64,000 bases of DNA from a candidate division WOR-3 bacterium (GTDB lineage Bacteria; Hydrothermota; Tepidihabitantia; Tepidihabitantales; Tepidihabitantaceae), in NCBI GenBank assembly GCA_965649205.1, contig CBFGJV010000001.1:19285-83284 (forward strand). The letters are read 5' to 3'. A model generated the notes under the pieces. That model made no database searches. It saw only the letters and a list, made by a program, of their open reading frames with translations, and was not told the origin of the DNA. Shown here piece by piece: positions 6,902-49,803 of the stretch (its first letter is position 1; each line of letters begins with the position of its first letter). A program made the translations under genes and the position numbers.

Positions 6902-6914
6902 TAAGGAGGAGAGC

Positions 6915-9900
6915 ATGCGAATACAGAACAGACAGGAAATACGGTTGTTTTTCGGCAACCGCACACTGTTTGCTGCGCTGGTTTTGCTCGTAGCAGTTTC
7001 TTCCGGCTGGGCAAGGACAGCAGGCAAAGCCTGGCGGCCACCGCGTATATTTGACTTCAGATGGTACCAGAAGAACCAGTGGCGTCTGCCCATAACCAAC
7101 TACGCTACTTTTGGATATGGCATTGGTCGTTCGGGTGGTGAGTGGCCCGCAGGTTCTGGCGATATGTACATCTATGGCGCGGGCATCTGGATCGGCTGCA
7201 TCAGACGCGGTCCGGGAGGAAAGGATACGCTGGTATCATGTGGTTATAACCCGAACTCGGGCAAGTCAGAGATGACTCCGGGCGCGTATGACAACGCTAC
7301 AGGCGGTTATGCTGACCGAGGATTTGAGCGAGTTTATGTTTACCCTGGAGACTGGCCGCCGAAGGAATCAGACTTCCCGCCTTCCATGTGGGGCGGTGTT
7401 GAAACTCCTCTGCGCATTAAGGGTGACCCGACTTTCCGAGACACTTTCTATTATGTGCCTCGTAAAGCCACTTCTCTCGGCGATGCCTGGGCGGTGTTCA
7501 ATGATCGGGACCCGGCCCAGCACGTAGCCGGTAAGACGCCCAGGCCTATCGGAGTAGAAGTATATCAGGAGACCTACTCCTGGACCTTGCCGTGGAACAA
7601 GGACATAGTGTTTTTCAAGCTCAATGTGCGCAATCGGACGCAGGATACATTGCGGGATGTGTATCTGGGTATGGCTTGTGATGCTGACGTAGGAAATGCG
7701 GCTGACGACTGGTGCGGTCTGGCGCTGTCCAAGTACATATACAGCCCAGACGGCAGAGATTCGGTCTTTGTGGACAACATGGGTTATGTGTGGAGCAATG
7801 ATGGCGTACCTTCCGGCTTTGTGGGCTTTGACTTCCTCCAGAGTCCTTTCTGGAAAGATGCCAATGGCAAGATGCGTGAAGTAGCACCGGCTCCGGGTCA
7901 GGATTCTATTTACCCGAACGGTTACGACGACAACAACAACGGGCTCATAGACGAACCGGCGGAAGGCAGACAGTTGGGAATGACCGCGTACAAGATATTC
8001 ACCTTGACTGACGCTGACCCCAAAGACGATGTAGAACAATTCCTGGCTCTGGCTGGCTATGACTACTGGGACCCGCAGAGGCCATATAACCCCTACGATT
8101 CTTCTGACCAGGCTGCGGCTGATAAGCGTTTCCTGCAATCCACTGGACCGTTCAATCTGGCGCCGGATGAGATAGCCACAGTAACCATAGGTCTGATTGC
8201 CGCGGACCGGGCAAGAGGCGGACCGCCCGGAACAATGGTTTACAACTTGGCTTTGGCATCCCGTGCTGCGCAAGCCGCCTACGACAACAACTGGATTATG
8301 CCCGAACCCCCGCCCAGCCCGAATGTGACTACTATTCCGGGCGACGGGCGGGTTACGATTGTATGGGACAATCTACCAGAGAACGCCAAAGACCGTTTCT
8401 ATCCGGTTGCGCCGGCCCTGAAGAATCCCTTCTATACGGAGAAAGACTTTCAGGGATACAAGATATACCGCAGCCGTACCGGTCAGCCCGGAGACTGGAA
8501 GCTGCTGGCGCAGTGTGACAAGATAGATGGCATCAAGTACGAAGATAAGAGCGCGCCGGAGTCGCTACGCACCAAAGCCACAGATGCCGGACTATTCTAC
8601 AGTTATGTAGATTCTTCAAACTTGCGACTGGGGTTTCCTTACTACTACGCAGTAACAGCATTCGACGTCAATTACCTGGGAGACACGACAGGCGGCCAGA
8701 AACTGGATACGATGTCGCTGGAGTCGGGCATTACTGCGGTGAGGGCTGTGCCTCGTACTCAACCTTCGAACTATACAGCTCCCGGTGACAGCTGGTGGCA
8801 GGTGGCTGGCAATCCCAAACTTCGGTTAAAGATAAACCCTCTAGCGGTGAGTCCCCATGCAGTAAAAGACCAGACCTATCGTATACAATTCGGGCCTCCC
8901 AGATATGACCCTGTGGCACGAGAACCGGTGTACAGTTTTGTGGTGACAGACGAGGCCGGAGACACGGTGGCAGGCCCCACGAGCTTCGTTGCCGCCATCA
9001 GCCGCACCACCGATACCTTCCGGCTGGTTCCCACAGTGTTTGACTCGGTAATTACACGCATAGCCCGGGTGCGCTCTCCTTCGGGTGACACGGTTATAGA
9101 TACTACCAAAGCCTGGCTGCCGGTAGCGCAGATGGCATTCACTCTGCAGATGGACTCAGTACCGCTACAGTTCTTCCAGAAGATAAGTCTGGTAAAGAAC
9201 GCAGCAGGATACCCGGCGGAATCGCTGGCTTTTCCCGTGCCTACGCAGAATCGGGCTCTCTGGGCTTACCGAGGGTCAACCTATCGGATTGCCTGGAAAA
9301 CGCATCCATCTGGTCGTCTGACCTGCGAGGTTTACGACCTAGAAAACCAGCTGCCTGTACCTTACCGCTACTTCAGTCCGCGCGCAGCCACGCCGGACTC
9401 GGCAGACGGCTGGTGCTTCCGGGATATACGCGATGCGGCAGATACTTTCTCAGTAGGCAAGACCTGGTTTATGTATCTGTGCGGCAGCACGTTCCAGTTC
9501 AACCCAACAGGCGCAGCGGCGTTCTCGCCCGCTGACGGCGATACCTGGCTTGTGTACTCGCGGCCGCTGGCTCCGGCGCCTGTGTTCTCCGCCTTCAATG
9601 TGCGCTTCACCGCGGCCAGATTTGCTAGCAGCAGCGATACGGGCAAGCTTAACGTCAAAGTGGTGCCCAATCCATATCTGGTGCGCAACGAGTGGGAACG
9701 GCACAAGGACTTCCGCAAACTCAAATTCATAAACCTTCCTTCCAAATGCACCATACGCATCTACAACCTTGCGGGCGACCTGGTACGGACGCTTACGCAC
9801 GACGAGACCAATCCTCGGGCTGGCGGTTTGCCCAACCAGTACGGCGGAGATGAAGACTGGGACCTGCTGAACGAGAACAGCCAGAAACCGGCGCCTGGGT

Positions 9901-9968
9901 TGTACCTGTTCCATGTGGATGCCGGGGAGCTGGGCACGCAGGTAGGCAAGTTCGTCATCGTATACTAG
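6915..9968 (+). CDS. large secreted protein (~1017 aa) with T9SS C-terminal sorting domain; possible PorU-like or T9SS cargo
   Basis: ATG at 6915 after an AGGAGGAG RBS, with signal peptide LFAALVLLVAVSSGWA. C-terminal VVPNPYLV...GLYLFHVDAGELGTQVGKFVIVY matches the T9SS CTD. It lies directly upstream of a PorV/FadL-like beta-barrel gene, which is the porU-porV synteny seen in Bacteroidetes. Confidence 0.6.
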   Translation: MRIQNRQEIRLFFGNRTLFAALVLLVAVSSGWARTAGKAWRPPRIFDFRWYQKNQWRLPITNYATFGYGIGRSGGEWPAGSGDMYIYGAGIWIGCIRRGPGGKDTLVSCGYNPNSGKSEMTPGAYDNATGGYADRGFERVYVYPGDWPPKESDFPPSMWGGVETPLRIKGDPTFRDTFYYVPRKATSLGDAWAVFNDRDPAQHVAGKTPRPIGVEVYQETYSWTLPWNKDIVFFKLNVRNRTQDTLRDVYLGMACDADVGNAADDWCGLALSKYIYSPDGRDSVFVDNMGYVWSNDGVPSGFVGFDFLQSPFWKDANGKMREVAPAPGQDSIYPNGYDDNNNGLIDEPAEGRQLGMTAYKIFTLTDADPKDDVEQFLALAGYDYWDPQRPYNPYDSSDQAAADKRFLQSTGPFNLAPDEIATVTIGLIAADRARGGPPGTMVYNLALASRAAQAAYDNNWIMPEPPPSPNVTTIPGDGRVTIVWDNLPENAKDRFYPVAPALKNPFYTEKDFQGYKIYRSRTGQPGDWKLLAQCDKIDGIKYEDKSAPESLRTKATDAGLFYSYVDSSNLRLGFPYYYAVTAFDVNYLGDTTGGQKLDTMSLESGITAVRAVPRTQPSNYTAPGDSWWQVAGNPKLRLKINPLAVSPHAVKDQTYRIQFGPPRYDPVAREPVYSFVVTDEAGDTVAGPTSFVAAISRTTDTFRLVPTVFDSVITRIARVRSPSGDTVIDTTKAWLPVAQMAFTLQMDSVPLQFFQKISLVKNAAGYPAESLAFPVPTQNRALWAYRGSTYRIAWKTHPSGRLTCEVYDLENQLPVPYRYFSPRAATPDSADGWCFRDIRDAADTFSVGKTWFMYLCGSTFQFNPTGAAAFSPADGDTWLVYSRPLAPAPVFSAFNVRFTAARFASSSDTGKLNVKVVPNPYLVRNEWERHKDFRKLKFINLPSKCTIRIYNLAGDLVRTLTHDETNPRAGGLPNQYGGDEDWDLLNENSQKPAPGLYLFHVDAGELGTQVGKFVIVY

Positions 9969-9977: not shown

Positions 9978-11027
9978 ATGAAAAGGTTCAGCAAAGCGAC
10001 AAGAATAATCAGAATTGCGTTTCTGTGTGTTTTGGTGCTGGGAACATTCGCCAGTTCTCAGGCGGCGTTTGCCAAGATAGGCATGGCCGGACTCACCTTC
10101 CTGAAGATAGGAGTGGGGCGCAGCACAGGAATGGGAGATGCCTTCGTCGCTGTGGCGGATGACGCCACAGCTGCGTATTGGAATCCGGCCGGGCTGGCCC
10201 TAGTTTCGGGCAGGCAAGCGCTGGTAAACCACATAGATTGGATAGCGGACGTCAGCCACGAATACGTGGCAGTCGTACTACCCGCAGGGCAGGGAAATCT
10301 GGGCATAAATGTCACCGCGCTATCAATGGGCAAGATGGAAGAGACCACCCTGGAGCGCTATCAGGGCACTGGTACTTTCTTCACGGGCACAGACCTGGCC
10401 CTGGGCGTGTCTTATGCCCGGATGGTAACGGAGAAACTGTGCTTTGGACTGACTGCCAAAGTTCTATCTGAAAGAATCTGGGACGTTGGTGCAACCGGCG
10501 CAGCATTCGACCTGGGAGTACACTACAATACCGGCTGGCGGAACTTGCGCCTGGCGATGGCTATTGCCAACTTCGGGCCAGACCTCTCCTTCCACGGCAG
10601 CCAGTTGAACTTCATGCACGACCCCGACTGGGAATGGCCTTGGACGCGGGAACCCATACCCGGCACCTATCTTACCGAGAACTTCTCTCTCCCCGTGATA
10701 TTCCGCTTCGGCGTGGCATATGACTTCATCAACGACGAAAACTCACGACTCACCGGCGCCGCGGACCTCAATCACTACAACGACGTAAACGAGAAAGTCA
10801 ACCTCGGGCTGGAATATGTTTACCGCATTCTCTCTCTCCGGGGTGGTTACATAGTGAACACCGATGCCAGCTATGCCTCAGACTTGGGCATTCGGGCCGG
10901 TCTTTCGGCAGGGATGGGTCTGAAACTAAAGCCGGCGGAGAATCTGGGGTTAACTCTGGACTACAGCTATCGTGACCTGGCGCGACTTGGGGGTTCGCAC
11001 AGATTCACGCTGCTGGTTGATTTCTAA
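9978..11027 (+). CDS. FadL/TodX/PorV-superfamily outer-membrane beta-barrel protein (PorV/PorQ-like)
   Basis: Signal peptide, then the N-terminal motif GMGDAFVAVADDATAAYWNPAGLA that is typical of the FadL/PorV superfamily. Ends in an aromatic residue (LLVDF). Lies 10 bp downstream of a CTD protein. Confidence 0.55.
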   Translation: MKRFSKATRIIRIAFLCVLVLGTFASSQAAFAKIGMAGLTFLKIGVGRSTGMGDAFVAVADDATAAYWNPAGLALVSGRQALVNHIDWIADVSHEYVAVVLPAGQGNLGINVTALSMGKMEETTLERYQGTGTFFTGTDLALGVSYARMVTEKLCFGLTAKVLSERIWDVGATGAAFDLGVHYNTGWRNLRLAMAIANFGPDLSFHGSQLNFMHDPDWEWPWTREPIPGTYLTENFSLPVIFRFGVAYDFINDENSRLTGAADLNHYNDVNEKVNLGLEYVYRILSLRGGYIVNTDASYASDLGIRAGLSAGMGLKLKPAENLGLTLDYSYRDLARLGGSHRFTLLVDF

Positions 11028-11098
11028 ACCAATCCGAACGCTTTATGACCAGCTCGGGATTCCCCGGGCCGGTCTCGTTTTATATGGCAACCGCACTT

Positions 11099-11273
11099 GT
11101 CGGTAGGTGAGATTCGGAATGTCAACTGCTACTGTCAAGCGTAAGAACAAAACTTCCCGACTACGTGGTGTCGGTAGGTGAGATTCGGAATGTCAACTGC
11201 TACTTGGCACGACTCGGCAAAGCATTGCAGGCAGTGGGTGTCGGTAGGTGAGATTCGGAATGTCAACTGCTAC
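11099..11273 (+). CRISPR. CRISPR mini-array: 3 direct repeats of 34 bp (GTCGGTAGGTGAGATTCGGAATGTCAACTGCTAC) separated by 2 spacers (37 and 36 bp)
   Basis: Identical repeats at 11099-11132, 11170-11203 and 11240-11273. Spacers are 11133-11169 and 11204-11239. The repeat starts 5'-GTCGG and ends ...CTAC like Cas12b repeats (e.g. Alicyclobacillus GTCGG...GGCAC). It is adjacent to cas2-cas1-cas4-cas12b. Confidence 0.85.
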
Positions 11274-11339: not shown

Positions 11340-11490
11340 GCGCCGCAAACTTTCAGTTTTGCAGGTATGCCTACTGACTAACTTCAGTTAGTAGCAAATC
11401 TTATTCTTCTGCGAGCATCCCTTGACCCCCGTTGCACCACCTGCATGCTCGCACTCCAGATTGTCAGAGAGCAGTTGACTTTCCTATTAT
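11340..11490 (+). ncRNA. candidate tracrRNA between array and cas2: two hairpins plus 3'-proximal anti-repeat
   Basis: Hairpin 11371-11394 (ctactgact...agttagtag, 9 bp with one G-U pair). Hairpin 11410-11418/11445-11453 (tgcgagcat/atgctcgca). Anti-repeat AGCAGTTGACtTTCC at 11470-11484 is complementary in 14 of 15 nt to the repeat segment GGAATGTCAACTGCT. Strand and exact ends are not resolved. Confidence 0.5.
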
Positions 11491-11619
11491 CTACCACTCG
11501 GTGCCAAGGCCGTTGAAGGCGACGACACGTTCCGAGTATTCTGCACCCCTCTAGGATGCGGTTTAAGTATATGTGCCGAAAGGAAATCGTCAAGTGTATC
11601 CGGAGTCGAGCTTCGGAGG

Positions 11620-11910
11620 TTAGACTATGATAGTGCGTTCTTCACCTTCCGGTAAGGGCTGTCCGAGATTCGTGGCAGCCTGGCGCGCCGCAGCTTCGTC
11701 CGCGCCGAGGTCTATAATCAGTGCCTGGTCTTCTTTGAGGTTCATGGCTTCCTCCAGGGCAGACTGCATACGTACGCGGTCAATCTCTTTTAGAGTGCAG
11801 AAGAAGACCGAGTACTGCCAGTGTTCTCCGTAGCCTTTCATTATCTTGAAGACCCGGCGCCAGCGCGCCGGGCTGGAGATGTCGTAACAGACAAGATAGG
11901 AGCGACGCAT
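11620..11910 (-). CDS. cas2: CRISPR-associated endoribonuclease Cas2
   Basis: MRRSYLVCYDISSPARWRRVFKIMKGYGEHWQYSVF matches the Cas2 fold signature. The ATG start overlaps the cas1 TAA stop (TAATG). Confidence 0.85.
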   Translation of the reverse strand: MRRSYLVCYDISSPARWRRVFKIMKGYGEHWQYSVFFCTLKEIDRVRMQSALEEAMNLKEDQALIIDLGADEAAARQAATNLGQPLPEGEERTIIV

Positions 11911-12896
11911 TAGCGAGTAGTCAGGAAGGAGAGAGTGGAGATTTCTCCTGTGAGCCACGCGGCGATCATCTTAGCGTGGAGATAAAGCATTCGGCGATAG
12001 CTCAAACGGTAGTCGAATACCGGATGAGTGACAATTGTATCCATTCTGCGCGCAAAGGCTTTGAAGAATGCTTTGCGGCCAGCTTCGGTGAAATTGCAGC
12101 CAGCCACAGTGTCGAGGAAGTGACCGCCGGTAAGTTCTTCTTTGTTGAATGCGGTGATGGCGATTGAGTCGGCGATGATGGGCCGAAATGGTTCCATCAG
12201 GTCTAGCGCCAGGGCGGGACGGCCGGGACGAGACACATGGAAACCACCGATGGAAGGTTCCAGCCGGGCCATTCTGAGCGCAGCGGCGCATTCAAGACAT
12301 AGCATTGAGTACGCCATCGAAAGGCAGGAGTTTACCGGATCAGGTGGTGGTCGGCGGGAGCGGCCGTTGGCGTCAAAGCGTGACGCTTCCGGCCCCTTGA
12401 GCATTCCGGCGAAATGCTGAAAGTACAGCGCAGCAGCCTGACCTTCGTGACTGCGCAGATTGTCAAGGGATTCGGCGACCCGGGCTTTTTCTACTTCCTG
12501 CGCCATTTGGGCCAGGACGGATGCAGGCAGAGAAGGATGGTTGCGCATCAGGACTGTGCGCTGATTCTGAATTTTGGCGGTGATGAGTGCGCGGGCGAGT
12601 TCCAGGCACTTTTCCGGACGGTCAAGTTGGCGCACTTGTTCCCGGCGCATCTTGGCACTGACCGAGTCCATAGGGTCGATCATTGCCACAAGCCTGCCAG
12701 CTGCGGAAAGATACGCTACTGGTACACATTGGTCGGCTAATGCATGAAGAGCCTGGGTAGAGACCTGCACCGGTCCGACAACAACAAGTCCTTCGAGCCC
12801 GGCGAGTGGAATCTGGCGTTGAGTTACACCCTTGCGGTCTATTACTTCAAGTGCCATCCCGGTGATGCCAATTCTCGTTCCTTGGGACAGTGCCAC
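11910..12896 (-). CDS. cas1: CRISPR-associated integrase Cas1
   Basis: Conserved C-terminal Cas1 block GRSRRPPPDPVNSCLSMAYSML...LDLMEPFRP. GTG start overlapping the cas4 TAG stop. 328 aa. Confidence 0.9.
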   Translation of the reverse strand: MALSQGTRIGITGMALEVIDRKGVTQRQIPLAGLEGLVVVGPVQVSTQALHALADQCVPVAYLSAAGRLVAMIDPMDSVSAKMRREQVRQLDRPEKCLELARALITAKIQNQRTVLMRNHPSLPASVLAQMAQEVEKARVAESLDNLRSHEGQAAALYFQHFAGMLKGPEASRFDANGRSRRPPPDPVNSCLSMAYSMLCLECAAALRMARLEPSIGGFHVSRPGRPALALDLMEPFRPIIADSIAITAFNKEELTGGHFLDTVAGCNFTEAGRKAFFKAFARRMDTIVTHPVFDYRLSYRRMLYLHAKMIAAWLTGEISTLSFLTTR

Positions 12897-13639
12897 TAGC
12901 TGAATACCCTCGTCACGGGGCGGCCACAGCTTGCGGGGTGTGGTTTGTTCAGTTTCGGTTTGGCCGCGCTGGAAGTTGATTTCGTCCGGCAGGCAGATGG
13001 GGAGAAGTGAACACCGGGGCAGCGCGGGTCATTGACGAGAGGGAGAGGGCGGGGGCCTTCGGCGCACTTCTTAGCCGCCTCAAGTATAGTCAGCGCTTCG
13101 TTGCGCAACTGCTGGTCAACCGGAATAGTGAGCTTGCGCTTTTCCTCAGCATAGTACAGCACCGCTTCATTCACTGTGTATCCAGCTTCTTCCAACAGAA
13201 GTGCCTGCAGTCCTACTTGAATCCGATCCGCAGGCCAAGGCGCAACTACCGTCAATGGTGGTGAATCTGCTTCTTCAGTCTCCTCGGGTGGTGGGGCGAT
13301 GGAAAGGTGTTTTGGCGCGCCTTTGCGGTATTCTACTGGTGTGGCCGTGTTACCAAAGATTTCAGCCAAGTCAAGAACGGCGCTGATCCCGAGCCGGGTA
13401 CTGGAAAGAGCGAGGGAACGGATGGATTTCGGTCTGTCCGGGTCTTCGTCAGATTCGGTCTCTTCTTTCCTGTCAGACGGAGCGCAGCTCGGTCGGTCAA
13501 CCCAGCGGTGGACCGCACAACCTTGCTCGGTGTCGGGTGAGGGCAGAAAGATGCCCTCAACTGCCATATAGTAGAATAGACGCGGGCAGTAGGCGTACTC
13601 GGCGACGTTGCGGCAGCCCCAGAGTTCAGACTCGCTCAC
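12896..13639 (-). CDS. cas4: Cas4 RecB-like exonuclease with Fe-S cluster
   Basis: N-terminal YCPR motif (AEYAYCPRLFYY), plus three C-terminal Cys (KKCAEG, RCPG, SACR) that complete a 4-Cys cluster. The gene sits between cas12b and cas1. Confidence 0.8.
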   Translation of the reverse strand: MSESELWGCRNVAEYAYCPRLFYYMAVEGIFLPSPDTEQGCAVHRWVDRPSCAPSDRKEETESDEDPDRPKSIRSLALSSTRLGISAVLDLAEIFGNTATPVEYRKGAPKHLSIAPPPEETEEADSPPLTVVAPWPADRIQVGLQALLLEEAGYTVNEAVLYYAEEKRKLTIPVDQQLRNEALTILEAAKKCAEGPRPLPLVNDPRCPGVHFSPSACRTKSTSSAAKPKLNKPHPASCGRPVTRVFS

Positions 13640-13642: not shown

Positions 13643-16600
13643 CTACAGACCGGCCCACTCACGCAGGCGTTCAATAACCCGGAATTTCACCTTATTCCAG
13701 TACTCGATGGAGCTCTGCCAACTGTCGGATTCAATTGCTGCGGCTGACACATCGCGCCAGGCGTTGACCACGTCTTTGTCAACGGTTTCACTGAGTAGTT
13801 GCCCATTCAGGTCGAATGCCTTCGTACCCTTACACCTGTCCTTTGCCGGCTTGCCGTTCCTGCCGCAGGGGATCCACCACCACCTACCTGGCCAGTCCGG
13901 GTCCAGGAGCGCGCGCAGGCCGATGTTGGCGGCAGCATTGAGGTCGGCCTGGATGCCTTTGGACGCGGGCGAGTTTCTGTCCGCCGAGACGAAAAGTTCA
14001 CCTGAGCGGTCAAGAATCCGTACCAACTTTGTGTTGTCGGTGCAGCCGTCCCACTTCGCCTTGAGTGCTTCGAGGTACTCGTTTTCTGCTCCCGCGGCGT
14101 TTTTGACCAGCCGTTCGTAGCGCCTCAGGAATTCCGGCACAGGCAGGTCTGTGCATCTTGCGCCCGGCGCGCCGGTGCGGGAATCCTGCCGGGAGGTGTA
14201 ATTGGGTATTACTTGGCGGAGGTGCAGGCCATTCAATTCGCAGGCTTCTTTCAGATACCTGAGAACTTTTACCGCTGACCACTGCATCAATTGACGGTTC
14301 TCGCGGCGGGTGCGGATCTGCTCAGGTCGATAGGAATCCAGATTTTCAACCACAACGGCATGGCAGGGTTTAAAGCGAGGTTCGACGATTGGTTTCTGAG
14401 GCCGCTTACCCCCTTCCCAATGTTTCTTGTCTTCGGAACCGATGCCCAGCGCGGCTTCCACAATTCTGGAAGCCAGTTGTTTCACCCGGTTCTCGCGCAG
14501 ATGTTCTAGTGTATTAAGGACTCGCTGGCCGTAGTTATCCAATCGTATGTCCCCTTTTTCGGGTGTGTTTCTGCGAATGTCTTCCGGCTCCGGTCTTGTC
14601 GTGTACGCTTTCATGGCTTGCCACAATTCGCGGATGTTTGCGAGTCGGTCCAATGACAGGCCACCTACGTGTCGGATAGAGGCATCGGATTTCGGTCTGC
14701 CGCGGGGCAGTAGCCAGTTACGAAGCCAGCGAAGATGACCTTTCCATTGTTTGTCATCTTCGCGCCAACGTGTGGCCCAGATAGTGTGTAGCTTCATCCG
14801 TAACTGGGGATTGCCGGCTAGTTTCGCCGCATAGTCAGTCAGTAGTTTGCGAAGATTCCTATTGTAAGTCTTGAGGTCGGCTTGCGTTGCGTCTTCGCCT
14901 GGCGCGGGTGGAAGTTCCGCCTGCACGTATGTGTGCCACATTTCCTTGGCCCAGTCGTCGCGCCAGCGGGGGCTTTGGAACAGACTCTGCCAGAGTATCA
15001 GGGTGTCTTCTAGGAACTCTCGGCGCCTGTCCGAGGTCAATTCTTCCCAGCGGTCGCCTGGTAGCGGCTTCCGGTCGGTTTTCAGGTTAAAAGCAATTCG
15101 AGCTCGATCGCCATGGCGGCGAAGTCCGAGCCGGGCGGTGTGGACCGCATCAGCCATCAGGCTGACTATGTTGTGAGGCAGAGGGTTGTCTTTCGTTCGG
15201 ATGCGACCGAGCCAGGCTTCGAACTGCTGCACTGCTGCATATTCATCAGGCGATGCCTTCCGGCCGGTTTCATTTTCGCCCTGCAGTTTGATAAGGAATT
15301 GCCGGTCGAGTCTTGCCCACATATCCGGGCCGGTACGACGGTAAATTGTCCTAAGTCTCTTACCGTTTTGACTGAGGAGCAGATGCAGGGCAAGGTCACC
15401 GGGTTTCGGCGGCTTTCGCCCGGCCTCTACGCAGAGGCGGGTCATCTGCTCTTCGGTAAGGGTCTCCCAGACCGCACAGGCTGCCGCGTAGCGGTGGCCG
15501 AGGTCCAGTGATAGCACACGAAAGCCCGGGAATACGGCATAGCATAAGAGTGGCATGCCCTTTCCGTCCTTTATTGTCTTCAGCGTGCGGCCAGGCTTGC
15601 GGGTCCTCGTCCAGGTTGAGTCTGCGGGCCAAGGTTGCCCAAGGGCCGGCTTCCTGTGTCTGCAGGCGGCCAGAGAAGGTGATGAACCAGTTCAGGCCGT
15701 TGCGCATTTTAACAGCTTTTGCATCCCAGCCATGCTTCTGCACGCGTCTGGCTAGCCGGTCGAGCTGGGCGCGGGGCGCCTGCAGGCGGCCGTTCCAGTC
15801 CTTCTCGACGAATACATTTAGGACAAGCACAGCTGTTTCGCTGCCGATGCCGGCTGCGGCGCGGCTGAGTCGGTCGGCGCGGCTAACCCGGACACCATCC
15901 GGAGCCTGTTCTAACATTAGATCAGCAACAAGCCGCTTGGACTGCCAGAGCATTGCGGTTCTGCCAAGCGATGAGCCTGTTACGGTACGTAGCGTAAGCC
16001 GCCGGTCGGACAGGGCGGCGCGGAATCGCGCGCGGGCTTTTTCAAGTTGTTTCTGTGCCCTGAGTAGCTGGGTGGGCATTTTTTCACCAGTGGTTTCGCC
16101 ACAATACGCGAGAGACTGTTTTAATCCGTCCACTTTCAAAACCGCTTTCAGGCAGGAGTTCGCAGCTTTGTGTACGGCAAAAGAAATTGCCCAGCGAGAC
16201 TTGCCGTAGTCGCAGAACACCGGATGAGATAATGGATGAGGATGACGATAGGCCGGGACTTTGAAGCGGCGCATCTTCGCCTGGGCGTCGCGTGCGTTAA
16301 CATAGTCAAGGAGCGGCTGCGGGTCGGGTCTGCCGTTGCGCAACCAGACGATGCTGGCGCCTTCTGCAGACAATGCCTCGAACAGAGTTATGTCGCCGAA
16401 CTTCTCGATTTCGTCCTGCAGTTCTCTGGCCGCAGCCTTGCGGTCTTCGGCGGTGCGGCAGTCTCTTGCAGACCAGGCTTTCACAATTTCTTCCCAACTT
16501 TCTACCGCCCGGGGCTGAATTTGGAGCGGGCCGACCGCACCAGTCAGGCGGCCACGTTCTTCCAAGAATTCGTCCAGCCATTGTTCCACATCGGTCGGAA

Positions 16601-17816
16601 CCTGCTTTTGGGCCTGTTCCGCTAACTTCTGGCGGTTGGCTTCGGCCCGTTTTTGCCAGGAGTGGGCGGAGGAAACCCTCCTGAGTGCGAGATCCAGCAT
16701 TACCGAGTACTCGTCTGTCAGGTTCCGGCCACAGACAAAGGGTAGGCCGGTGGCTTTCTCGACGCGGGCGCGCAATGTCTCGGCCCATTTGGGCACGTTT
16801 CTAGCACCCTTTTTTATTTTCTCCATTTTCTCGTCGGCCTCGGCTGCCAGTTTGGCCTGCATAGTTGAGATCGTATCCGATGTTAGTACCGGCATGGCGT
16901 AAACTTTCTCAATAGCCAGTTTTCCCTGCGAGGGGCGACCTTTCCATCCGATGGCTTTGTAGATGCTGCTGAGCAAGTCTCCCTTTTCCGTCGCCTGAAG
17001 AAGTGTCAGAAGGTGGCTAGCCAAGGCAGAGCCGGACTGACCCTCGTAGTGGCTCAGGTCCGCAGTAGCAAGCGTGCGCAGCTTTTCTGCTATTCGCTCC
17101 AGGTCGCTTTTTTCTCCAGTTCCCCAACAGTTCACGATCCAGCTGCGAGCCTTCTCTCGAAATTTTGTTTCGTGCGCGGCCGCCGCGGTTGATCCGGATT
17201 CTGGTAGCTTGAGGAATTCGTCTAAGTCCCCAAATAACTCTCTAATCGCCGACTGCGCTTGTTCCCTGGTAAGGGTCTTATCGTTCTGCGCTTCCACGTC
17301 GAATGCCTTGGCGCGGTTGACCCAGACCGCGTCTTCTCGAATGGCGGCACAGAGCGAATCTTTGCAGTCGGCAACCCAGGTCTCGATTTCCTCCTTGGTC
17401 AGACCACGTGAGGCGAGAACTTCCTAGAGCGCGGCAACGATTTTGCACTTGCGGTCGGGCGCGGCGTCTTTGCCGGTGGCCACGATGTACTCGGCCGGAG
17501 CACCGTCGGCGGATTCAACCGAGAGCCAGGAAAGTGCGAGCATTATACGACGGTGACGAGTTTCTTGGTCGTCGGGACGGCGTTCGGTTTTCTTCTGGCC
17601 TTTTCCTTCGGTTACCGATAGCTCTGTAAGACGGTGGTCCAGACCACCGCGGAGGGTGAGGAGCCAGTCAGCGAAGACCTTGGTTCCCTTGTTGATTGTC
17701 TCGTGCGTACGCCATAGTGCCTCGCGCCAAGCCTCATCTTCGCTTCCTTCTCTGCCCGGTATGCCGCGCAGGCGCAGCGTGTAGGCCCGTTGGGTAATTG
17801 TCGCAGACGTCGTCAC
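13643..17816 (-). pseudogene. cas12b: cas12b (C2c1) type V-B effector, ~1390 codons, interrupted by an in-frame TAG (17424-17426) and a 1-nt frameshift near 15556-15563
   Basis: Three co-linear ORFs: 17816-17424, 17297-15396 and 15556-13643. The N-terminus LWRTHETINKGTKVFADWLLTLR resembles Cas12b LWKLHKEVNAGVRYYTEWLSLLR. RuvC-I is FRVLSLDLGHRYAAA, RuvC-II is AVVVENLDSYRP...RENRQLMQWS, and the Nuc/RuvC-III region is RCTDLP...WDGC...ADLNAAANIGLRAL; all three match Cas12b. The first and second ORFs share a frame, separated only by TAG. The second and third differ by +1, with the frames diverging at the homopolymer ccc/ttt (15558-15563). Confidence 0.85.
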
Positions 17817-17849: not shown

Positions 17850-18230
17850 GTGGGAAAATTGGATTTGTCAAGAGAGCGGCGGGAGGGTAGCAAGGTAGGC
17901 GGTTCGGGGAGCAGGAAGGGGATTACTCCACCAGGCGGCGGGCGGGGCGCATCAGAGGGCAGGAAGGATAGTAGGTCGCTGCATGGGAGAGTGGGCGGGT
18001 CGGTGAGGGACTCGGCGGGCGGGTGGGCTATTGGACGGGGGAGTTGCCGGGTCTGCGGCCGGGAGGACTACGGGGGATACGGACCGGTGGGCAGGTGGTG
18101 GAGTGGCTCAGGGAGCGGCGGAGCGGGCAGGAGACCGGGTTATCCGGAGAGCCACGGAGGGAGCCGCTGGGGGAGCTGGGGAGGGGGGTAACGGAGGATT
18201 TCAGGTATCAGATTGTGGTGCAAGGAGTTA
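17850..18230. repeat. G/A-rich, C-poor low-complexity tract (GGGNGGG, GGCGGGCGGG runs) in the divergent cas12b / HTH intergenic region
   Basis: The plus strand is dominated by G runs, i.e. the cas12b-sense strand is C-rich. The ORF-track protein here is Gly-rich nonsense. On the cas12b-sense strand the tract shares CCGCCCGCC/CCCACCC motifs with the 45.6-kb C-rich tract. Confidence 0.6.
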
Positions 18231-18255
18231 GGTCGCTAAGAAGCCTTGCGGACCG

Positions 18256-18273
18256 TAATACTAATGAGTATTA
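18256..18273. promoter_or_regulatory. near-palindromic operator TAATACTAATGAGTATTA 10 bp upstream of the XRE regulator start
   Basis: 9+9 inverted repeat with one mismatch. A perfect version, TAATACTCATGAGTATTA, recurs at 62189-62206. Confidence 0.6.
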
Positions 18274-18283
18274 TCAAGTCTGT

Positions 18284-18646
18284 ATGGGCCGCAGGTATGT
18301 GCAGGATTCTTTCTACTTCCCGCAGGCGCTGGGCGAGCGGCTGCGGGAGCTTAGGCTGCGGGCGGGCCTGACCCAGAAGGAGCTGGCAAGTATGGCCGGG
18401 CGGGAGTTTCGGGGCGGGCAGGCCATGGTGAGCAGGCTGGAAAGAGGCCGCATTCGGAGCCCTTCTTTGCGGTTGGTGGCGGATTTTCTGCGGGCCTGTC
18501 GAGCGAGTTTTGACGACATCCGCGATGTCCTGCACGCCTACACGGCGCAGCCATTGGTGGCGGAGAAGCGGGCAAGAAGGGCGGTGCAGAGACTGGTGGA
18601 GGTTTTGCCGGAGGGTGTGGCGGGAAGGTGGATAAGTACGATGTGA
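18284..18646 (+). CDS. XRE-family helix-turn-helix transcriptional regulator
   Basis: HTH_XRE signature LRELRLRAGLTQKELASMAG...VSRLERG. ATG at 18284. The upstream part of the ORF-track frame is G-rich non-coding. Confidence 0.75.
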   Translation: MGRRYVQDSFYFPQALGERLRELRLRAGLTQKELASMAGREFRGGQAMVSRLERGRIRSPSLRLVADFLRACRASFDDIRDVLHAYTAQPLVAEKRARRAVQRLVEVLPEGVAGRWISTM

Positions 18647-19425
18647 AGACGGCAGTGTGGCGTCGGCACCAGGGAGATTTGCCGGAGGCAGAGGCGGCAC
18701 GGTTGGAGAGAGTGAGGGGAATGGCTCAGCAGTTGCTTTTGCGGCAGAAGTTGGAGGAGAGGTTGCATATTGCCCTGAATCATATCGGCGCCAGGCGGGG
18801 CGGGCCGGCAAGAAAGGCGCTGGCCGATTTTGGTCGCAAGGTTTGGGCTATTTTGCGCCGAACGCGGGCGCAGCCAAAGAAGAGGGCGTACCTTTTGTCT
18901 GAGGCGGGCGAGAAGCTGAGGCAGGAACGGGTGGTGACAGACGAGGCCATACGTTATATCGAAACCGTGACGTGCGAGCTTTTTGCGGAGCTGGAGCAGA
19001 AGGGCGAGTTGGATCGCTTGCCGAGCGTAGAGGTCACAGAGGGGCTGCTGGCCAAAAGGGCGGGGGAGCGAGTTATGCGAGATGAGCAGATGTGCGCGGA
19101 GGAGTGGAGAAAGCAGTTGCGGGAGTACGAGCAGGCGCGGGAGCGAATGCTGAGACAGGTGCTGGACGAAGCGAGACCGTTGTTTGCGGAGAAGGGAAAG
19201 CAGGAGGAGGTATTCTATATTGGCGTGGTAAGAGGTTGTTTGTATGCGGCGCAACGGACGCGGGCGGGGAGTAAAGAGCGGGAGCAGGCAACAGAGGAAG
19301 CGTTGCAAGTGGTACGCAGGAAAGGGCTGGATGTAGAGTTGGCGCGACAGGTGGCCGAGTTTGCCTTGCGCAGGTTTGACGAGTTGCTGCGTTTTCTCCC
19401 GCCGAATCCCCGGACGCAGCTCTGA
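18628..19425 (+). CDS. hypothetical Arg/Glu-rich alpha-helical protein (265 aa), operonic with the HTH regulator
   Basis: GTG start overlapping the HTH gene end by 19 nt in another frame. Highly charged, coiled-coil-like composition with no recognisable motif. Confidence 0.45.
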   Translation: MDKYDVKTAVWRRHQGDLPEAEAARLERVRGMAQQLLLRQKLEERLHIALNHIGARRGGPARKALADFGRKVWAILRRTRAQPKKRAYLLSEAGEKLRQERVVTDEAIRYIETVTCELFAELEQKGELDRLPSVEVTEGLLAKRAGERVMRDEQMCAEEWRKQLREYEQARERMLRQVLDEARPLFAEKGKQEEVFYIGVVRGCLYAAQRTRAGSKEREQATEEALQVVRRKGLDVELARQVAEFALRRFDELLRFLPPNPRTQL

Positions 19426-19483: not shown

Positions 19484-20149
19484 ATGAGTGAAATTTTGCG
19501 TCGAATTGCCCGAGCAGTGGAGTCAGGTCACAGCGATGCTGCATCGCCGTATCCGCCAGATATGGTGGGTGAGCCTGGCGTAGATGAACTGACTCGGCAG
19601 GCTTTGGCAGAAGGCATACAGGTAAGGCGGTTGTTGTATGAGGGTCTGGTGGCGGGAATGAAGGCTATTGGCGAGAGGTTCAGCGAGGGGAGTGCGTTTC
19701 TGCCCGAGGTTCTGATGGCGGCGCGGGCTTTGGCTGCGGGCTTTACACATCTGCAGCCGTACTTTTCGTCTGGCGCAGTGAAGCATAAGGGGACGGTGAT
19801 TCTGGGTACAGTACAGGGCGACTTGCACGATATCGGCAAGAAGATTGTGGGTCTGTTTTTTAACGGGGCAGGGTGGAGAGTGGTGGATTTGGGCGTGGAT
19901 GTGCCGCTGGAACGGTTTCTGGCCGCAATCGAGGAGCACAAGCCGCAGGCAGTGGGCTTGAGCACGCTCTTGACTACGACTATGCCGAGCATGGCAAAGA
20001 TTACGGCTGGCATAAAATCCCGGTATCCAGAGTTGAAGGTGGTGGTAGGGGGTGCGCCTTTGACTGCTGAGTTTGCCGCCAGCATAGGGGCGGACTTTTA
20101 TGGCGCGGACCCGCAGATGGCCTTAGACTATCTGGACGGTGCGGTATGA
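19484..20149 (+). CDS. corrinoid (cobalamin-binding) protein, MttC/MtbC-like
   Basis: B12-binding DxHxxG motif (QGDLHDIGKKIV) and a Rossmann B12 domain. ~220 aa, typical of methyltransferase cognate corrinoid proteins. Confidence 0.85.
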   Translation: MSEILRRIARAVESGHSDAASPYPPDMVGEPGVDELTRQALAEGIQVRRLLYEGLVAGMKAIGERFSEGSAFLPEVLMAARALAAGFTHLQPYFSSGAVKHKGTVILGTVQGDLHDIGKKIVGLFFNGAGWRVVDLGVDVPLERFLAAIEEHKPQAVGLSTLLTTTMPSMAKITAGIKSRYPELKVVVGGAPLTAEFAASIGADFYGADPQMALDYLDGAV

Positions 20150-21231
20150 CGAGCAGGGAAGTTATTACCGCGTTGGTGAGGGATAAGGAATGTCCCGAAC
20201 GAGTGGGGCATCAGGAGAGTTTTTGGGAGGACTTGCGACCGGCCTGGGAAGAGCAGGGGTTGCCGCGCGAGGGCCGCATGCAGGAGATTCTGGACTTGGA
20301 TATTATTCCCATAAACGAAGAGTGGACCAGCACCGAGGCGCGAGTGGGCTACAGGCGAATTCTGGAGGAGACAGAAACAACCTATGTGGAAGAGAACGGT
20401 TGGGGTTCGGTGATGCGTTATTGGAAAGGAAAGTCTGGCACCCCAGAGCATCTGTCCTTTGCCCTGACCGACGAGAAGGTATGGAAGGAGAAGTACCGGG
20501 ACCTTTTGACGAGTTTTGATATCCGCCGTCTGGGAGACCTGGAAAGATTGAAGAAGAGGTATCGCGAGCTGGAGTCTTCGGACAAGTTCCGGGTTTACGA
20601 GGTGCTGCAGATATTTGAGATAATGCGGCAGGCGATGGGCGATGTGATAATGCTGGAGGCGATGTGTTTGAATCCGGCCTGGATAACGGATTTCTGCACG
20701 GTAATGACCGATAACATCATTATGCACCTGGAGTATGAGATACGGGAGGTTGGCCTGCCGGACGGTATCTGGTTCTATGAGGACCTGGGTTATCGGCATC
20801 TGCCTTTTGTCTCGCCGCAGATGTATAGAGACCTTCTGCTGCCGCATCACCGTCGGTTTGTGGATTTCTGTCACAGTTATGGTCTGCCGGTGATAATGCA
20901 TACCTGCGGCAATATCGCTCCTCTCTTTCCTTATCTTCTGGAAACGGGTATAGATTGTTTGCAGCCGCTGGAAGCCAAGACCGGGCAGAATTTTATCAAG
21001 ATGGCCGAACTGGCTTCCCGGCGCATAGCTTATATGGGGAATATGGATATCCGGGCGTTTGAGACTAATGACCCGCAGGCCTTGGCGGCAGAAATTTTGC
21101 CCAAGCTGCAGGCGGCGATAGAGAAACGGATACCTTACATTTTCCATTCCGACCACAGTATTCCCCGTACGGTCAAGCTGGCCACCTATCGCTACGCCCG
21201 AGCGTTGGTTGATGAGTACGGTCGTTACTGA
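20146..21231 (+). CDS. uroporphyrinogen-decarboxylase-family methylcorrinoid methyltransferase (MtaA/MtbA/MtgA-like)
   Basis: 361 aa with URO-D fold features. The context between a corrinoid protein and an MttB-family gene indicates a corrinoid:acceptor methyltransferase. Confidence 0.65.
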   Translation: MTSREVITALVRDKECPERVGHQESFWEDLRPAWEEQGLPREGRMQEILDLDIIPINEEWTSTEARVGYRRILEETETTYVEENGWGSVMRYWKGKSGTPEHLSFALTDEKVWKEKYRDLLTSFDIRRLGDLERLKKRYRELESSDKFRVYEVLQIFEIMRQAMGDVIMLEAMCLNPAWITDFCTVMTDNIIMHLEYEIREVGLPDGIWFYEDLGYRHLPFVSPQMYRDLLLPHHRRFVDFCHSYGLPVIMHTCGNIAPLFPYLLETGIDCLQPLEAKTGQNFIKMAELASRRIAYMGNMDIRAFETNDPQALAAEILPKLQAAIEKRIPYIFHSDHSIPRTVKLATYRYARALVDEYGRY

Positions 21232-21246
21232 AACTGAGGGGGAAAA

Positions 21247-22707
21247 ATGAGACCAAAGTTGAAGCTGCTTAGCGAGGGACTTGTTGAGCAGATTGTAGCC
21301 GAGGCACTGGACCTGCTGGCCGTGTTGGGAGTAGAAATAAACAACCCCGGGCTGGTTGAACTGCTGTTGGCCCAGGGCGCAGAATGGGATACCGAGAAGA
21401 AAAGGTTGCTGTTGCCCGAGTCCATGGTGAGGCAGGCTTTGGCTGCTGCTCCGTGTTCGTTCCGGTTGTATGATGTGCGAGGGGAGATGACAAATGAACT
21501 GGGGGGTGATAATGTGTATTTCACCCCGGGTTCTGCGGCGTTGAACATTCTGGATGCAGATACCGGCGAGATGAGACGACCACAGACGCGTGATTACGTG
21601 CAGTATGCCAAGCTGGTGTCGCGTTTAGAACACATTGCGGCCCAGTCCACAGCCCTGATACCGGCAGATGTGCCGGAGAAGATTTCGGACAGCTATCGGT
21701 TGTATCTGTCGTTGCTGTTCTGTGAGAAGCCGGTGGTTACCGGCTGTTTTACGATAGAGTCCTTTCGAGTAATGAAGGAAATGCAGGTGGCGGTGCGGGG
21801 TTCTGAAGAGGAGCTTGTCGCCCGGCCCCTGACCATTTTTTCCTGCTGTCCGACCGCGCCTCTGAAGTGGAGCGAGGTGACTTCGCAGAATGTGGTGGAT
21901 TGTGCGCGGGCCGGTATCCCGGTGGAGTTTATCTCCATGCCTTTGTCCGGCTTTGTGGCGCCTGTCACCCTGGTGGGCACTTTGATTCAGCATACGGCGG
22001 AGACCCTGTCGGGTGTGGTTATCAGTCAAACAGTCGCGCCGGGTTCGCCGATTCTTTATGGCGGTTCGCCGGCGATTTTTGATGTGCGCCGAGAAACTAC
22101 CCCGATGGGCGCCATAGAGACGATGATGATTGACTGTGCCAGTGCAGAAATAGGTAAGTACCTGGGTTTGCCCACGCAGGCTTACATCGGTCTTTCCGAC
22201 GCGAAGCTGCTGGACGCACAAGCCGGGCTGGAAACAGGCATCGGCGCAGTTCTGGCCGCCTTGGCAGGCGTGAACAGCGTGTCTGGTCCGGGCATGCTGG
22301 ATTTTGAGAGTTGTCAGAGTCTGGAGAAGCTGGTGCTGGATAATGAGATATGCGGCATGGCGCTGCGGCTGGTGCGGGGTATTGAGCCGCACGAGGACTT
22401 TCCGGCCTTGAATCTTTTCACCGAACTGTTGAGTGAGAAACATTTGCTTATCAGTCCGCATACCAGGCGCTGGCTGAAGACAGAGCACTACTTTCCCGGG
22501 CCGGTGATAGACCGGGCAAACAGAGGACGCTGGCAGGCTGCCGGTAGTCCTACTCTTTTGGCACGGGCGCGCCGGGAAAAGGAGCGCTTGATCGCCAGCT
22601 GGCAGCCGTCCCGTCTGGCAGAAGAGACAAAAAAGGAACTTACCCGGCTGATGACCACAGAGGCCCGGCGCTGGGGGATGGAACAGCTGCCAGAACTGCC
22701 CGCATGA
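21247..22707 (+). CDS. MttB-superfamily (non-pyrrolysine) quaternary-amine:corrinoid methyltransferase (MtgB/MtqB-like)
   Basis: 486 aa, the length and architecture of the trimethylamine methyltransferase family. Uninterrupted ORF with no in-frame amber codon. GGGAAAAATG RBS. Confidence 0.75.
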   Translation: MRPKLKLLSEGLVEQIVAEALDLLAVLGVEINNPGLVELLLAQGAEWDTEKKRLLLPESMVRQALAAAPCSFRLYDVRGEMTNELGGDNVYFTPGSAALNILDADTGEMRRPQTRDYVQYAKLVSRLEHIAAQSTALIPADVPEKISDSYRLYLSLLFCEKPVVTGCFTIESFRVMKEMQVAVRGSEEELVARPLTIFSCCPTAPLKWSEVTSQNVVDCARAGIPVEFISMPLSGFVAPVTLVGTLIQHTAETLSGVVISQTVAPGSPILYGGSPAIFDVRRETTPMGAIETMMIDCASAEIGKYLGLPTQAYIGLSDAKLLDAQAGLETGIGAVLAALAGVNSVSGPGMLDFESCQSLEKLVLDNEICGMALRLVRGIEPHEDFPALNLFTELLSEKHLLISPHTRRWLKTEHYFPGPVIDRANRGRWQAAGSPTLLARARREKERLIASWQPSRLAEETKKELTRLMTTEARRWGMEQLPELPA

Positions 22708-23432
22708 GACGAGTATTGCGTTTTGCCGCACAGGACTGCAGACCGAGCGAGGAGATGATACTTGCAGGAGAGGGAATGCCCGGCCGGGCTGGAGCGCAAC
22801 CCGAAACCTTGCGGCTGGTGGTTGAAGCCGGGGAATTGTACGAGAGGCTGGCTGCACCGGTGGCCGTGTACGCCAAGATCAGTCGCGAGGAATTCGGCAG
22901 GGTCTTTGTCGGCGAAGGTCGTAATGCGCCAGATGCAGTGCTGGGCAGGATTTATCCCCAGGCGGTCCGTTTGGCTCTTTTTGCCTGTACGGTGGGGAAG
23001 GCTTTGACAGACGAAATCACGCGGCGTTTTGAGCAGCACGATTATGCTCTGGGCTATGTGCTGGATGCTGTGGCTTCGGCTGGAGTGGAAAAATTGGCTG
23101 CACTGGTGGAGGCTGAATACTGCAGGGAAAACAGAGAACAGAAGTCTGGCGGGGAGGATTCGAAAACGGTGCTGAGGTATAGTCCGGGTTACTGCGGCTG
23201 GCATGTGAGCGGCCAGCGCAAGCTGTTTGAGTTTCTCCATCCGGAGGAGATTGGCATTACTCTGCGCGAGAGCTTTCTGATGGAGCCTTTGAAGTCGGTC
23301 TCGGGCGTGTTTGTGGCCGGGCCGGCCGCAATCCACCGTTTTCAGCCGGCTACATTCGTCTTTTGCGCAGAGTGTCGTCAACCGAGCTGCACAGAACGGT
23401 TGGCAGAACTAGAACAACGAACTGGGAGGTGA
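22704..23432 (+). CDS. methionine-synthase activation (AdoMet reactivation) domain protein
   Basis: LRYSPGYCGW...LRESFLMEPLKSVSGVFVAGP aligns to the MetH C-terminal block RPAPGYPACPE...LTESFAMWPGASVSGWYFSHP. Confidence 0.7.
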   Translation: MRRVLRFAAQDCRPSEEMILAGEGMPGRAGAQPETLRLVVEAGELYERLAAPVAVYAKISREEFGRVFVGEGRNAPDAVLGRIYPQAVRLALFACTVGKALTDEITRRFEQHDYALGYVLDAVASAGVEKLAALVEAEYCRENREQKSGGEDSKTVLRYSPGYCGWHVSGQRKLFEFLHPEEIGITLRESFLMEPLKSVSGVFVAGPAAIHRFQPATFVFCAECRQPSCTERLAELEQRTGR

Positions 23433-23436
23433 CAGA

Positions 23437-24075
23437 GTGGAATTGCTGCAGCAGATAGCAGACAGTCTGTGCGCAGGAGAATCAGAACGGGTAGCGCAGC
23501 TGACCCGTCGGGCACTGGATGCCGGCCTTGCGGGCCGCGAGGTCCTGGACAAAGGGTTGCTTGCCGGTATGGACCGGGTAGGCAGGTTGTTTCAAGAGGA
23601 AGAAGTGTTCCTGCCGGATGTGTTGCTTGCGGCCAAGGCGATGTATGCCGGGTTGGAGGTGCTGAAGCCTTTGTTGGAGCAGCAGGGGACAGGCGCGGCC
23701 GCCGGCAAGGTGGTTATCGGGACTGTGCAGGGTGATTTGCACGACATAGGCAAGAATCTGGTGACTATCATGCTGCGGGGCGCAGGGTTTGAGGTGATTG
23801 ACTTGGGCAATGACGTGGCACCGGAGAAATTCATTCAGGTGGCGTGCGAGCAGAATTGTCAGATTATAGGCATGTCCGCACTTCTGACTACTACGATGCC
23901 CGTAATGGGAGAGGTATGCGAGTTGCTGAGAGAAAAAAATCTTGCCGGCAGGATAAAGACGATAATCGGCGGTGCACCGGTGAGCGAGGCTTTTGCCCGC
24001 GAGATAGGGGCGGATGCTTACTGTTATGACGCAGCAGCGGCGGTTGCAACTGTCAAACGTCTTCTTTCTCAGTGA
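23437..24075 (+). CDS. second corrinoid (B12-binding) protein, MetH B12-domain-like
   Basis: DxHxxG motif QGDLHDIGKNLV. 212 aa. Located between the activation-domain and Hcy-domain genes. Confidence 0.85.
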   Translation: MELLQQIADSLCAGESERVAQLTRRALDAGLAGREVLDKGLLAGMDRVGRLFQEEEVFLPDVLLAAKAMYAGLEVLKPLLEQQGTGAAAGKVVIGTVQGDLHDIGKNLVTIMLRGAGFEVIDLGNDVAPEKFIQVACEQNCQIIGMSALLTTTMPVMGEVCELLREKNLAGRIKTIIGGAPVSEAFAREIGADAYCYDAAAAVATVKRLLSQ

Positions 24076-33972: not shown

Positions 33973-34060
33973 AGACTTGGGACAAGGTGAAAAAGGAGGG
34001 TGTTCCGTGGGGATAGATGAAAAGCGAAGAAGTAGTAGCACATCAAACAGGAGGCTGGCC

Positions 34061-40785: not shown

Positions 40786-41211
40786 TTAGGTCTGTGTTTT
40801 TTCCGGAAGAGGACCGAGGGCTATTATGGTCTCTGTGAATTTTGTCACCGCGTCGGCAAAACGTTGACCCTCGGAGGCTGAAATCCATTCCAGATGAAGC
40901 CTTTGAGGTTCTATTCCCAGTCCCCTTAGAAGAGACTGTAGCAGCATTATTCTTTTCTGGGTCTTGTAGTTACCCGAAACGTAGTGGCAGTCACCCGGGT
41001 GGCACCCACCGATAAAAACCCCGTCCGCTCCGTCCCGGAATGCTTTGAGGATAAACTGAGGGTCTATGCGGCCAGTGCACATTACCCGTATAATGCGAAT
41101 GTTAGCGGGGTATCTGAGCCTGGCTGTTCCGGCCAAGTCGGCACCTGCGTAACAGCACCAGTTGCAGGCGAATCCTACGATGCGAGGTTGAAAGCCAGGG
41201 GAAGAACTCAT
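40786..41211 (-). CDS. mvhD: MvhD-like (methyl-viologen-reducing hydrogenase delta / FlpD-type) iron-sulfur electron-transfer subunit
   Basis: [10 protein letters not shown] motif characteristic of MvhD. The ATG overlaps the hdrA TGA stop (ATGA). Confidence 0.75.
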
Positions 41212-43205: not shown

Positions 43206-43297
43206 AGTTTTAGCTTAGAGTCTTGGCGATGTTGTCGGCTAATACTGTCTCGGTGAAGCATCCTAATGCTCTGTTTCTTTTGGGTGAGCTAGCAGCA

Positions 43298-49681: not shown

Positions 49682-49803
49682 CGTATCGTTACGGGAGTCT
49701 GTCTGACCGGGTTTGACAGGGCTGGTTGCCGGCCTAGAATAATTTTTAGACTATCTAGGACCGTAGGTTGCATAAACAAATTAAGAAGAAAGGAAGAAAG
49801 TAC

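Follow-up and report, generated by a model that had tools for sequence, protein, structure and literature searches.

Three small lesions in the cas12b and cas4-cas1 genes of a type V-B CRISPR-Cas locus from a candidate division WOR-3 bacterium

How does the gene of a CRISPR effector nuclease come to be broken into three open reading frames (ORFs) while all of its catalytic residues are kept, and does the break exist in the organism or in the assembly only? This question is raised by a cas12b gene on a stretch of 64,000 nucleotides from a candidate division WOR-3 bacterium (GTDB phylum Hydrothermota; GenBank assembly GCA_965649205.1, contig CBFGJV010000001.1, positions 19,285 to 83,284 of the forward strand), hereafter called the window. 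An initial annotation had described two ORF-breaking lesions in cas12b and interpreted them as very recent inactivation or as consensus or assembly error. Both lesions exist, and a third one was found by us in the adjoining cas4-cas1 fusion gene. Considering the clustering of all three within two genes, the preserved catalytic residues and the lack of overall rate acceleration, we regard a recent genuine inactivation of this type V-B locus as the probable explanation.

Disruption of cas12b

Positions in the gene are compared below with ChCas12b from Candidatus Hydrogenedentes and with AacCas12b and BthCas12b, the founders of type V-B. The following features define the gene, its two lesions and its active site:

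13643-17816, minus strand: cas12b, type V-B effector, disrupted; a protein of 1390 residues once both lesions are repaired
17424-17426, minus strand: lesion 1, an in-frame TAG at codon 131; a sense codon in homologs
15521-15530, minus strand: lesion 2, one extra base in CCCGGGCTTT, between L765 and R766, where the homology switches frame in the alignment
15503-15505, minus strand: RuvC-I aspartate D771, intact, codon GAC; invariant in the homolog alignment and equivalent to D767 of ChCas12b
14345-14347, minus strand: RuvC-II glutamate E1157, intact, codon GAA; VVVENL, compared with VIIENL of ChCas12b (E1220) and with the Aac/Bth motif
13943-13945, minus strand: RuvC-III aspartate D1291, intact, codon GAC; GIQADLNAAANIG, compared with GLQADLNAAANIG of ChCas12b (D1364)

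Three consecutive ORFs cover the region just as initially annotated, namely 17816-17424 (130 residues), 17297-15396 (633 residues) and 15556-13643 (637 residues). The first two share the same phase and are parted by the TAG at 17426-17424 alone. The 126 nt beyond this codon are open and encode EVLASRGLTKEEIETWVADCKDSLCAAIREDAVWVNRAKAFD, including AIREDAVWVNR; among the N-terminal motifs of the family, this one (AIR[DE]DAVWVNR) is conserved best. At the TAG column itself, homologs carry R, A, K, Q, H or E; since this column is variable, a single-base change from CAG, AAG or GAG would be enough to create lesion 1.

Lesion 2 is a one-base insertion that places the third ORF in another frame. This part of the initial annotation holds, but its assigned site, 15558-15563, is ruled out by the homolog alignment and the real one lies about 35 nt downstream. 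Beyond the assigned site the upstream frame stays homologous for 12 codons further (GHATLMLCRIPGL compared with GHAKLVLSRLPGL of P0001, one of the nearer homologs, 8 of 12 residues identical), and the downstream frame is homologous only from RVLSLDLG onward. The junction peptide originally proposed, MPLLCYAVFPGF, was likewise incorrect, matching P0001 at only 3 of 12 positions. Both errors touch the observation made in the initial annotation and not its interpretation. The extra base is located in CCCGGGCTT[T]CGT at 15521-15530, and a third T at 15521-15523 (TT to TTT) is the simplest candidate, because Leu is invariant there among the nearest homologs. The lesion sits five codons ahead of the RuvC-I aspartate, and past it the upstream frame continues through 41 out-of-frame codons to a TGA at 15396-15398.

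In the alignment, each of the 15 homologs reads a sense codon where the window has TAG, and their frames pass unbroken across the site of lesion 2. The homologs heading the match list are all called as single proteins of 1375-1583 residues. For comparisons, the gene was repaired by joining the frames and replacing the TAG with an X. Hundreds of intact proteins could be aligned to the resulting 1390-residue protein, covering 98-100% of it. Its nearest intact homologs comprise 1381-1395 residues and align end to end at 56-61% identity (best 61%), and no insertion or deletion (indel) of more than five residues sets it apart from the four nearest ones.

The assignment to Cas12b is based on several characters. 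The C-terminal ORF matches the Pfam family PF22126 (C2c1_RuvC-like) with 84.9 bits against a cut-off of 27, and the closest solved structure is that of ChCas12b (PDB 9KLN, E=7e-290), aligned with query residues 7-1384 in three stretches. The D...E...D triad is present: the codons of D771, E1157 and D1291 were checked and aligned to the ChCas12b triad, in agreement with the intact RuvC residues reported initially. In ChCas12b the catalytic residues are D767, E1220 and D1364, equivalent to D570, E848 and D977 of AacCas12b (PMC12204704). Homology to characterised Cas12b extends over the full length. The order cas12b, cas4-cas1 fusion, cas2 and CRISPR array was also found, the fusion being present though frameshifted. 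What this locus lacks is an effector in one uninterrupted ORF, owing to the TAG at codon 131 and the extra base at codon 765/766. Judged by domain content and gene order, the locus is thus classified as type V-B (Cas12b) CRISPR-Cas, a known type, and the repaired protein as a divergent member (at most 61% identity) of the ChCas12b-like clade.

ChCas12b (PDB 9KLN-9KLQ; PMC12204704) belongs to the same long-form clade as the window gene, in which its motifs DLGHR[YF]AAACAVWE and ADLNAAANIGLRALLDPDWPG recur nearly identically. It comprises 1496 residues, so that the window gene with its 1390 is about 100 residues shorter, and it is an active nuclease in vitro, whereas a stop and a frameshift break up the window gene. 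AacCas12b and BthCas12b (PDB 5U30, 5WQE, 5WTI) have the region from RuvC-II to RuvC-III in common with the window protein (E=1e-14 to 1e-21), detectable similarity being confined to this C-terminal region of about 270 residues; they are smaller (about 1100-1130 residues) and are placed in another clade (PMC12204704). Much closer in sequence are four uncharacterised homologs from metagenome or SRA assemblies (P0001-P0004; L001), all intact single ORFs of 1381-1394 residues with 56-61% identity over the full length. None of them is close enough to show the ancestral codon at each lesion.

A third lesion and the remainder of the locus

Downstream of cas12b follow the adaptation genes, a candidate anti-repeat and the array. 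The anti-repeat would belong to a trans-activating CRISPR RNA (tracrRNA):

11910-13639, minus strand: cas4-cas1 fusion, in which a frameshift leaves separate ORFs for Cas4 (13639-12896) and Cas1 (12896-11910); Pfam Cas_Cas4 and Cas_Cas1
13016-13019, minus strand: lesion 3, one C absent from a C-run (GGGG on the plus strand); breaks the Cas4 motif C-x2-C-x5-C
11620-11910, minus strand: cas2, intact, 96 residues; its ATG overlaps the cas1 stop; 52 tblastn matches in related loci
11470-11495, minus strand: candidate tracrRNA anti-repeat, between cas2 and the array, from local alignment to the repeat
11096-11273, minus strand: minimal CRISPR array, three repeats of 37 nt, of which the distal one is degenerate, enclosing two spacers of 34 and 33 nt

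The loci of AacCas12b and BthCas12b show the same order of cas12b, cas4-cas1, cas2 and array. Lesion 3 had been missed in the initial annotation; it strikes a fusion that is typical for such loci. Here, the Cas4 frame reads DPRCP followed by GVHFSPSAC, and the other frame reads ...RCSLLPICLPDE and runs on into Cas1. Adding one C to the C4 run restores DPRCPRCSLLPICLPDE, and the related loci among those listed show ND[PSA]RC[PVL][RK]CSLQPICLPDE or near variants at this place, mostly NDxRCPRCSLQPICLPDE. The repaired fusion comprises 576 residues; in the 40 best related loci, tblastn mostly recovers residues 1-576 in a single segment, with 59-69% identity, and a search for stops in the near-full-length fusion matches found them in none of 46. 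Lesion 3 destroys the cysteine motif CPRCSLLPIC of Cas4 and parts Cas4 from Cas1.

The anti-repeat aligns locally to the repeat with a score of 26, a value reached by none of 1000 shuffles, and is treated as a candidate tracrRNA. In the sense of the CRISPR RNA, the repeat ends in ...CCGACACC, like the ...GACAC ends in relatives. The arrays of related loci reach at least 50 repeats, in comparison to three in the window.

On the other side of cas12b and divergent from it lies an XRE-family helix-turn-helix gene with a 19-nt overlap with a 265-residue ORF in another frame, the pair spanning 18023-19425 on the plus strand. No Pfam match was obtained for this ORF, and homologs of neither the XRE-family gene nor the ORF were found in any of 79 related cas12b loci.

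A probable recent inactivation and its alternatives

The most serious competitor of a genuine inactivation is the notion that the gene is intact in the organism and that all three lesions are local errors of assembly or consensus, caused by low coverage, strain mixing at a variable CRISPR-Cas locus or base-run errors of long reads. We consider this possible but doubtful. It gains from the fact that short base runs host two of the lesions, both of them single-base indels, that apart from the lesions the gene has its full length, its catalytic residues and no overall rate acceleration, and that the relatives of a neighbouring MttB-family gene (at most 72% identity) all come from metagenome-assembled genomes, the source assembly being probably that of an uncultured lineage. 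An internal test is offered by the remainder of the window. About 45 other ORFs were scanned against Pfam and about 40 matched, with essentially complete domain coverage (e.g., FTHFS 2-555/556, CstA 2-560/560, S-methyl_trans 1-282/283, FlpD 1-123/123 and MTTB 29-492/500) and normal operon junctions. By these two measures, no broken gene was detected in the 57 kb outside cas12b and cas4-cas1. Three lesions in the 5.9 kb of these two genes thus face none in the other 57 kb, where 29 would be expected at the lesion density of the cas genes (P(0)=3e-13); the chance that three random lesions all land in the two cas genes is P=8e-4. Base runs of at least 4 nt number 610 in the rest of the window, compared with 54 in the cas genes, so that a general base-run error process is excluded. 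A pure base-run model furthermore fails for lesion 1, because the TAG is a substitution and not an indel. For three errors to be confined to a pair of neighboring genes, some special local cause would be required, and no evidence of one was seen. Lesion 3, together with the fact that no broken gene was found elsewhere in the window, makes random assembly error the less likely choice compared with real inactivation.

Provided that the lesions are real, the inactivation would have to be recent. The ratio of nonsynonymous to synonymous substitutions, suggested along with the initial annotation, is unusable at this distance, since an amino-acid identity of about 60% saturates synonymous sites. Instead, we used a relative-rate test with the four nearest homologs and three distant outgroups on three Cas12b segments, combined with leave-one-out counts of conserved columns. 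Segment 2 covers the residues between the lesions (131-765; window 15524-17423) and segment 3 the RuvC/Nuc part (766-1390); columns conserved in at least 97% of 120 homologs were defined as near-invariant. Unique substitutions were balanced against those of the sister sequences in all three segments, with counts of 43 vs 31, 40 vs 26, 35 vs 42 and 49 vs 47 in segment 2 and of 31 vs 26, 35 vs 30, 33 vs 32 and 34 vs 34 in segment 3, showing no significant acceleration (binomial p=0.11-0.92). Deviations from near-invariant columns were ordinary in segment 1 (1 of 34) and segment 3 (1 of 117), and likewise in Cas4-Cas1 (1 of 56 and 3 of 119). The lack of overall acceleration and these ordinary conserved columns would date the inactivation as recent. 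Both options of the initial annotation, very recent inactivation or consensus/assembly error, hold up, the recency being supported by the absence of large indels, the lack of significant acceleration and the ordinary conservation of the N-terminal and RuvC/Nuc parts and of Cas4-Cas1.

Segment 2 deviates at 10 of its 99 near-invariant columns, compared with 1.16 on average and at most 5 in the 120 homologs, and the excess over segment 3 is significant (Fisher p=0.003). Uniform neutral decay is ruled out as its origin, considering that segment 3 shows no excess and that segment 2 is free of any further stop, with 4.2% of all single-base changes there being able to make one. The closest relative also depends on the segment, with segment 2 nearest to P0002 and segment 3 to P0001. 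We regard the excess, a weak signal from segments that were split post hoc, as lineage-specific divergence of the REC lobe or as a sign of mosaic origin; a partial relaxation of selection is a further possible cause.

The sequence of events that we propose for a recent inactivation begins with three independent small mutations, which would have disabled the locus so recently that nothing else has decayed. As judged from the reading frames, translation from the GTG at 17816 would end after 130 residues. Any product of read-through or re-initiation would shift frame five codons ahead of the RuvC-I aspartate and reach a stop after 41 further codons, so that no polypeptide with the RuvC nuclease would arise from the authentic start. 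The base lost from cas4-cas1 would destroy the C-terminal cysteine motif of Cas4 and uncouple Cas1. Because the lesions break the frames of both cas12b and cas4-cas1, interference and spacer acquisition would both be switched off, leaving cas2, the anti-repeat and the short array as relics. We count the minimal array, with three repeats compared with at least 50 in relatives, in favor of inactivation. That the lesions are present in the DNA of the organism, that function was lost and that cost or autoimmunity provided the pressure are what we infer from these data. Escape from self-targeting and its cost by way of mutated cas genes is documented (PMC6990116), and the small cas mutations with the array kept that are described there resemble the situation in the window. 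In contrast to those cases, no self-targeting spacer was found within the 64 kb.

Several observations weigh against a genuine inactivation. The lesions are known from one assembly alone, with no independent copy found, and both indels are located in short base runs of 3-4 nt, a classic site of sequencing errors. The lack of measurable decay fits error equally well. ORFs without a Pfam match (e.g., 2998-4080, 6879-9968 and 18628-19425) are beyond the reach of the lesion check. Neither spacer matches elsewhere in the window when up to 8 mismatches are allowed, so that an autoimmunity motive is unsupported here. Exact matches of the two spacers were also absent from viral contigs.

The search for an independent copy extended across several collections. 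No relative above 61% identity was found in the protein database, in metagenome contigs (best 59%, scan with the clade alignment) or among genome representatives (queried with the C-terminal piece). Consequently, the comparison with other strains or metagenome-assembled genomes of the lineage, which had been suggested along with the initial annotation, yielded no sequence showing the ancestral state. No record was returned when the exact products of the C-terminal ORF and of MttB were looked up. The neighbouring MttB gene was used as a synteny anchor as well; its relatives, at most 72% identical, stem from many phyla, and no syntenic locus was gained.

Apart from error, the fragments could be meaningful in themselves. 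Programmed recoding, with the TAG read as pyrrolysine or by read-through and the frameshifts bypassed by the ribosome, perhaps as expression control, is the least credible of the explanations considered. It is attractive at first sight because an MttB-family gene is part of a corrinoid methyltransferase operon at a distance of 3.4 kb, and the Rfam model PYLIS_3 matches at 22192-22291 within this gene (21247-22707, plus strand; 39.9 bits, with 38 as the gathering score). The match, however, reflects homology of the coding sequence. The UAG of the model aligns to CUU (Leu316) and the gene contains no in-frame TAG; it is accordingly a non-pyrrolysine MttB homolog, and pyrrolysine recoding was rejected. 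The only tRNA in the window is a tRNA-Glu, with no tRNA-Pyl present. TAG, moreover, ends 12 of 44 long ORFs, including the ORF given here as 6879-9968 and cas12b itself, the latter where all four nearest homologs end. This agrees with the initial view of TAG as a genuine stop and of recoding as unlikely, a view that the 15 aligned homologs also support, none of which shows a stop in the TAG column or changes frame at lesion 2. Finally, the lesions in the two genes are of three types (nonsense codon, insertion and deletion), each of which would call for a recoding device of its own.

It is also very unlikely that the pieces are functional as they stand, be it that the 637-residue C-terminal ORF is kept as a stand-alone nuclease with the N-terminal lobe decaying, or that slippage in the base runs serves as a reversible on/off switch. 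The C-terminal ORF does possess its own ATG (15556), and the near-invariant deviations are concentrated between the lesions. Known phase-variation tracts are far longer than 3-4 nt, which counts against a switch. The first 12 residues of the C-terminal ORF are out-of-frame sequence, and the piece lacks WED and REC1, which bind guide RNA and the protospacer adjacent motif in Cas12b structures (PMC12204704). A more specific version holds that the lesions are real, that the 637-residue ORF (RuvC-I, helical-II, RuvC-II, Nuc and RuvC-III) is under selection as a stand-alone protein and that the region between the lesions is decaying. Such selection would explain the 10 of 99 deviations in residues 131-765 versus 1 of 117 in residues 766-1390, and we nevertheless consider it a shade less probable still; the asymmetry comes from the post hoc split and could be explained by REC-lobe divergence or mosaic origin.

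Recent genuine inactivation, our preferred explanation, has counterparts elsewhere in the clade. Broken cas12b genes occur in about 5-6 lineages among about 60 full-length loci (~10%). Frame changes near residues 202-233 are found in L048 and L049, a TAG within an insertion in L004, and the same TAA in two independent assemblies, L040 (7837) and L041 (5078). The cas12b of L077, with three frames, stops and a large internal deletion, is far more decayed than the window gene. In all of these loci cas12b is otherwise recognisable, and the breaks lie at positions other than the lesions in the window, which makes them independent events.

Neighboring genes and implications

The plus strand downstream of the XRE-family gene hosts a corrinoid-dependent methyl-transfer operon:

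19484-25013, plus strand: operon for a B12-binding protein, a URO-D/MtaA-like methyltransferase, the non-pyrrolysine MttB, a Met_synt_B12 activation-domain protein, a second B12-binding protein and a homocysteine S-methyltransferase-like protein

The operon probably demethylates a quaternary amine. Further genes of the window include FTHFS at 52128-53792 and an HdrA-like/MvhD/ETF cluster at 40786-45045. Secreted proteins with C-terminal domains of the FlgD_ig/CHU_C type are encoded at 1077-2852, 25010-25918, 30902-34062, 49768-52053 and 9978-11027; these domains, in combination with a weak, sub-threshold PorV-like match, suggest an FCB-group-like organism with type IX secretion.

With respect to the cas genes, the appropriate annotation is that of a disrupted type V-B locus bearing three lesions instead of two, with lesion 2 placed at 15521-15530; it should not be taken for active immunity in this organism. 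For enzyme screening, the repaired Cas12b could be resurrected by fixing three bases. The locus is most likely a recently dead defence system, of a sort common in bacteria. The broken cas12b genes in approximately 10% of the related metagenome loci make such a disruption ordinary and provide a small data point on the rate at which class 2 effectors are lost.

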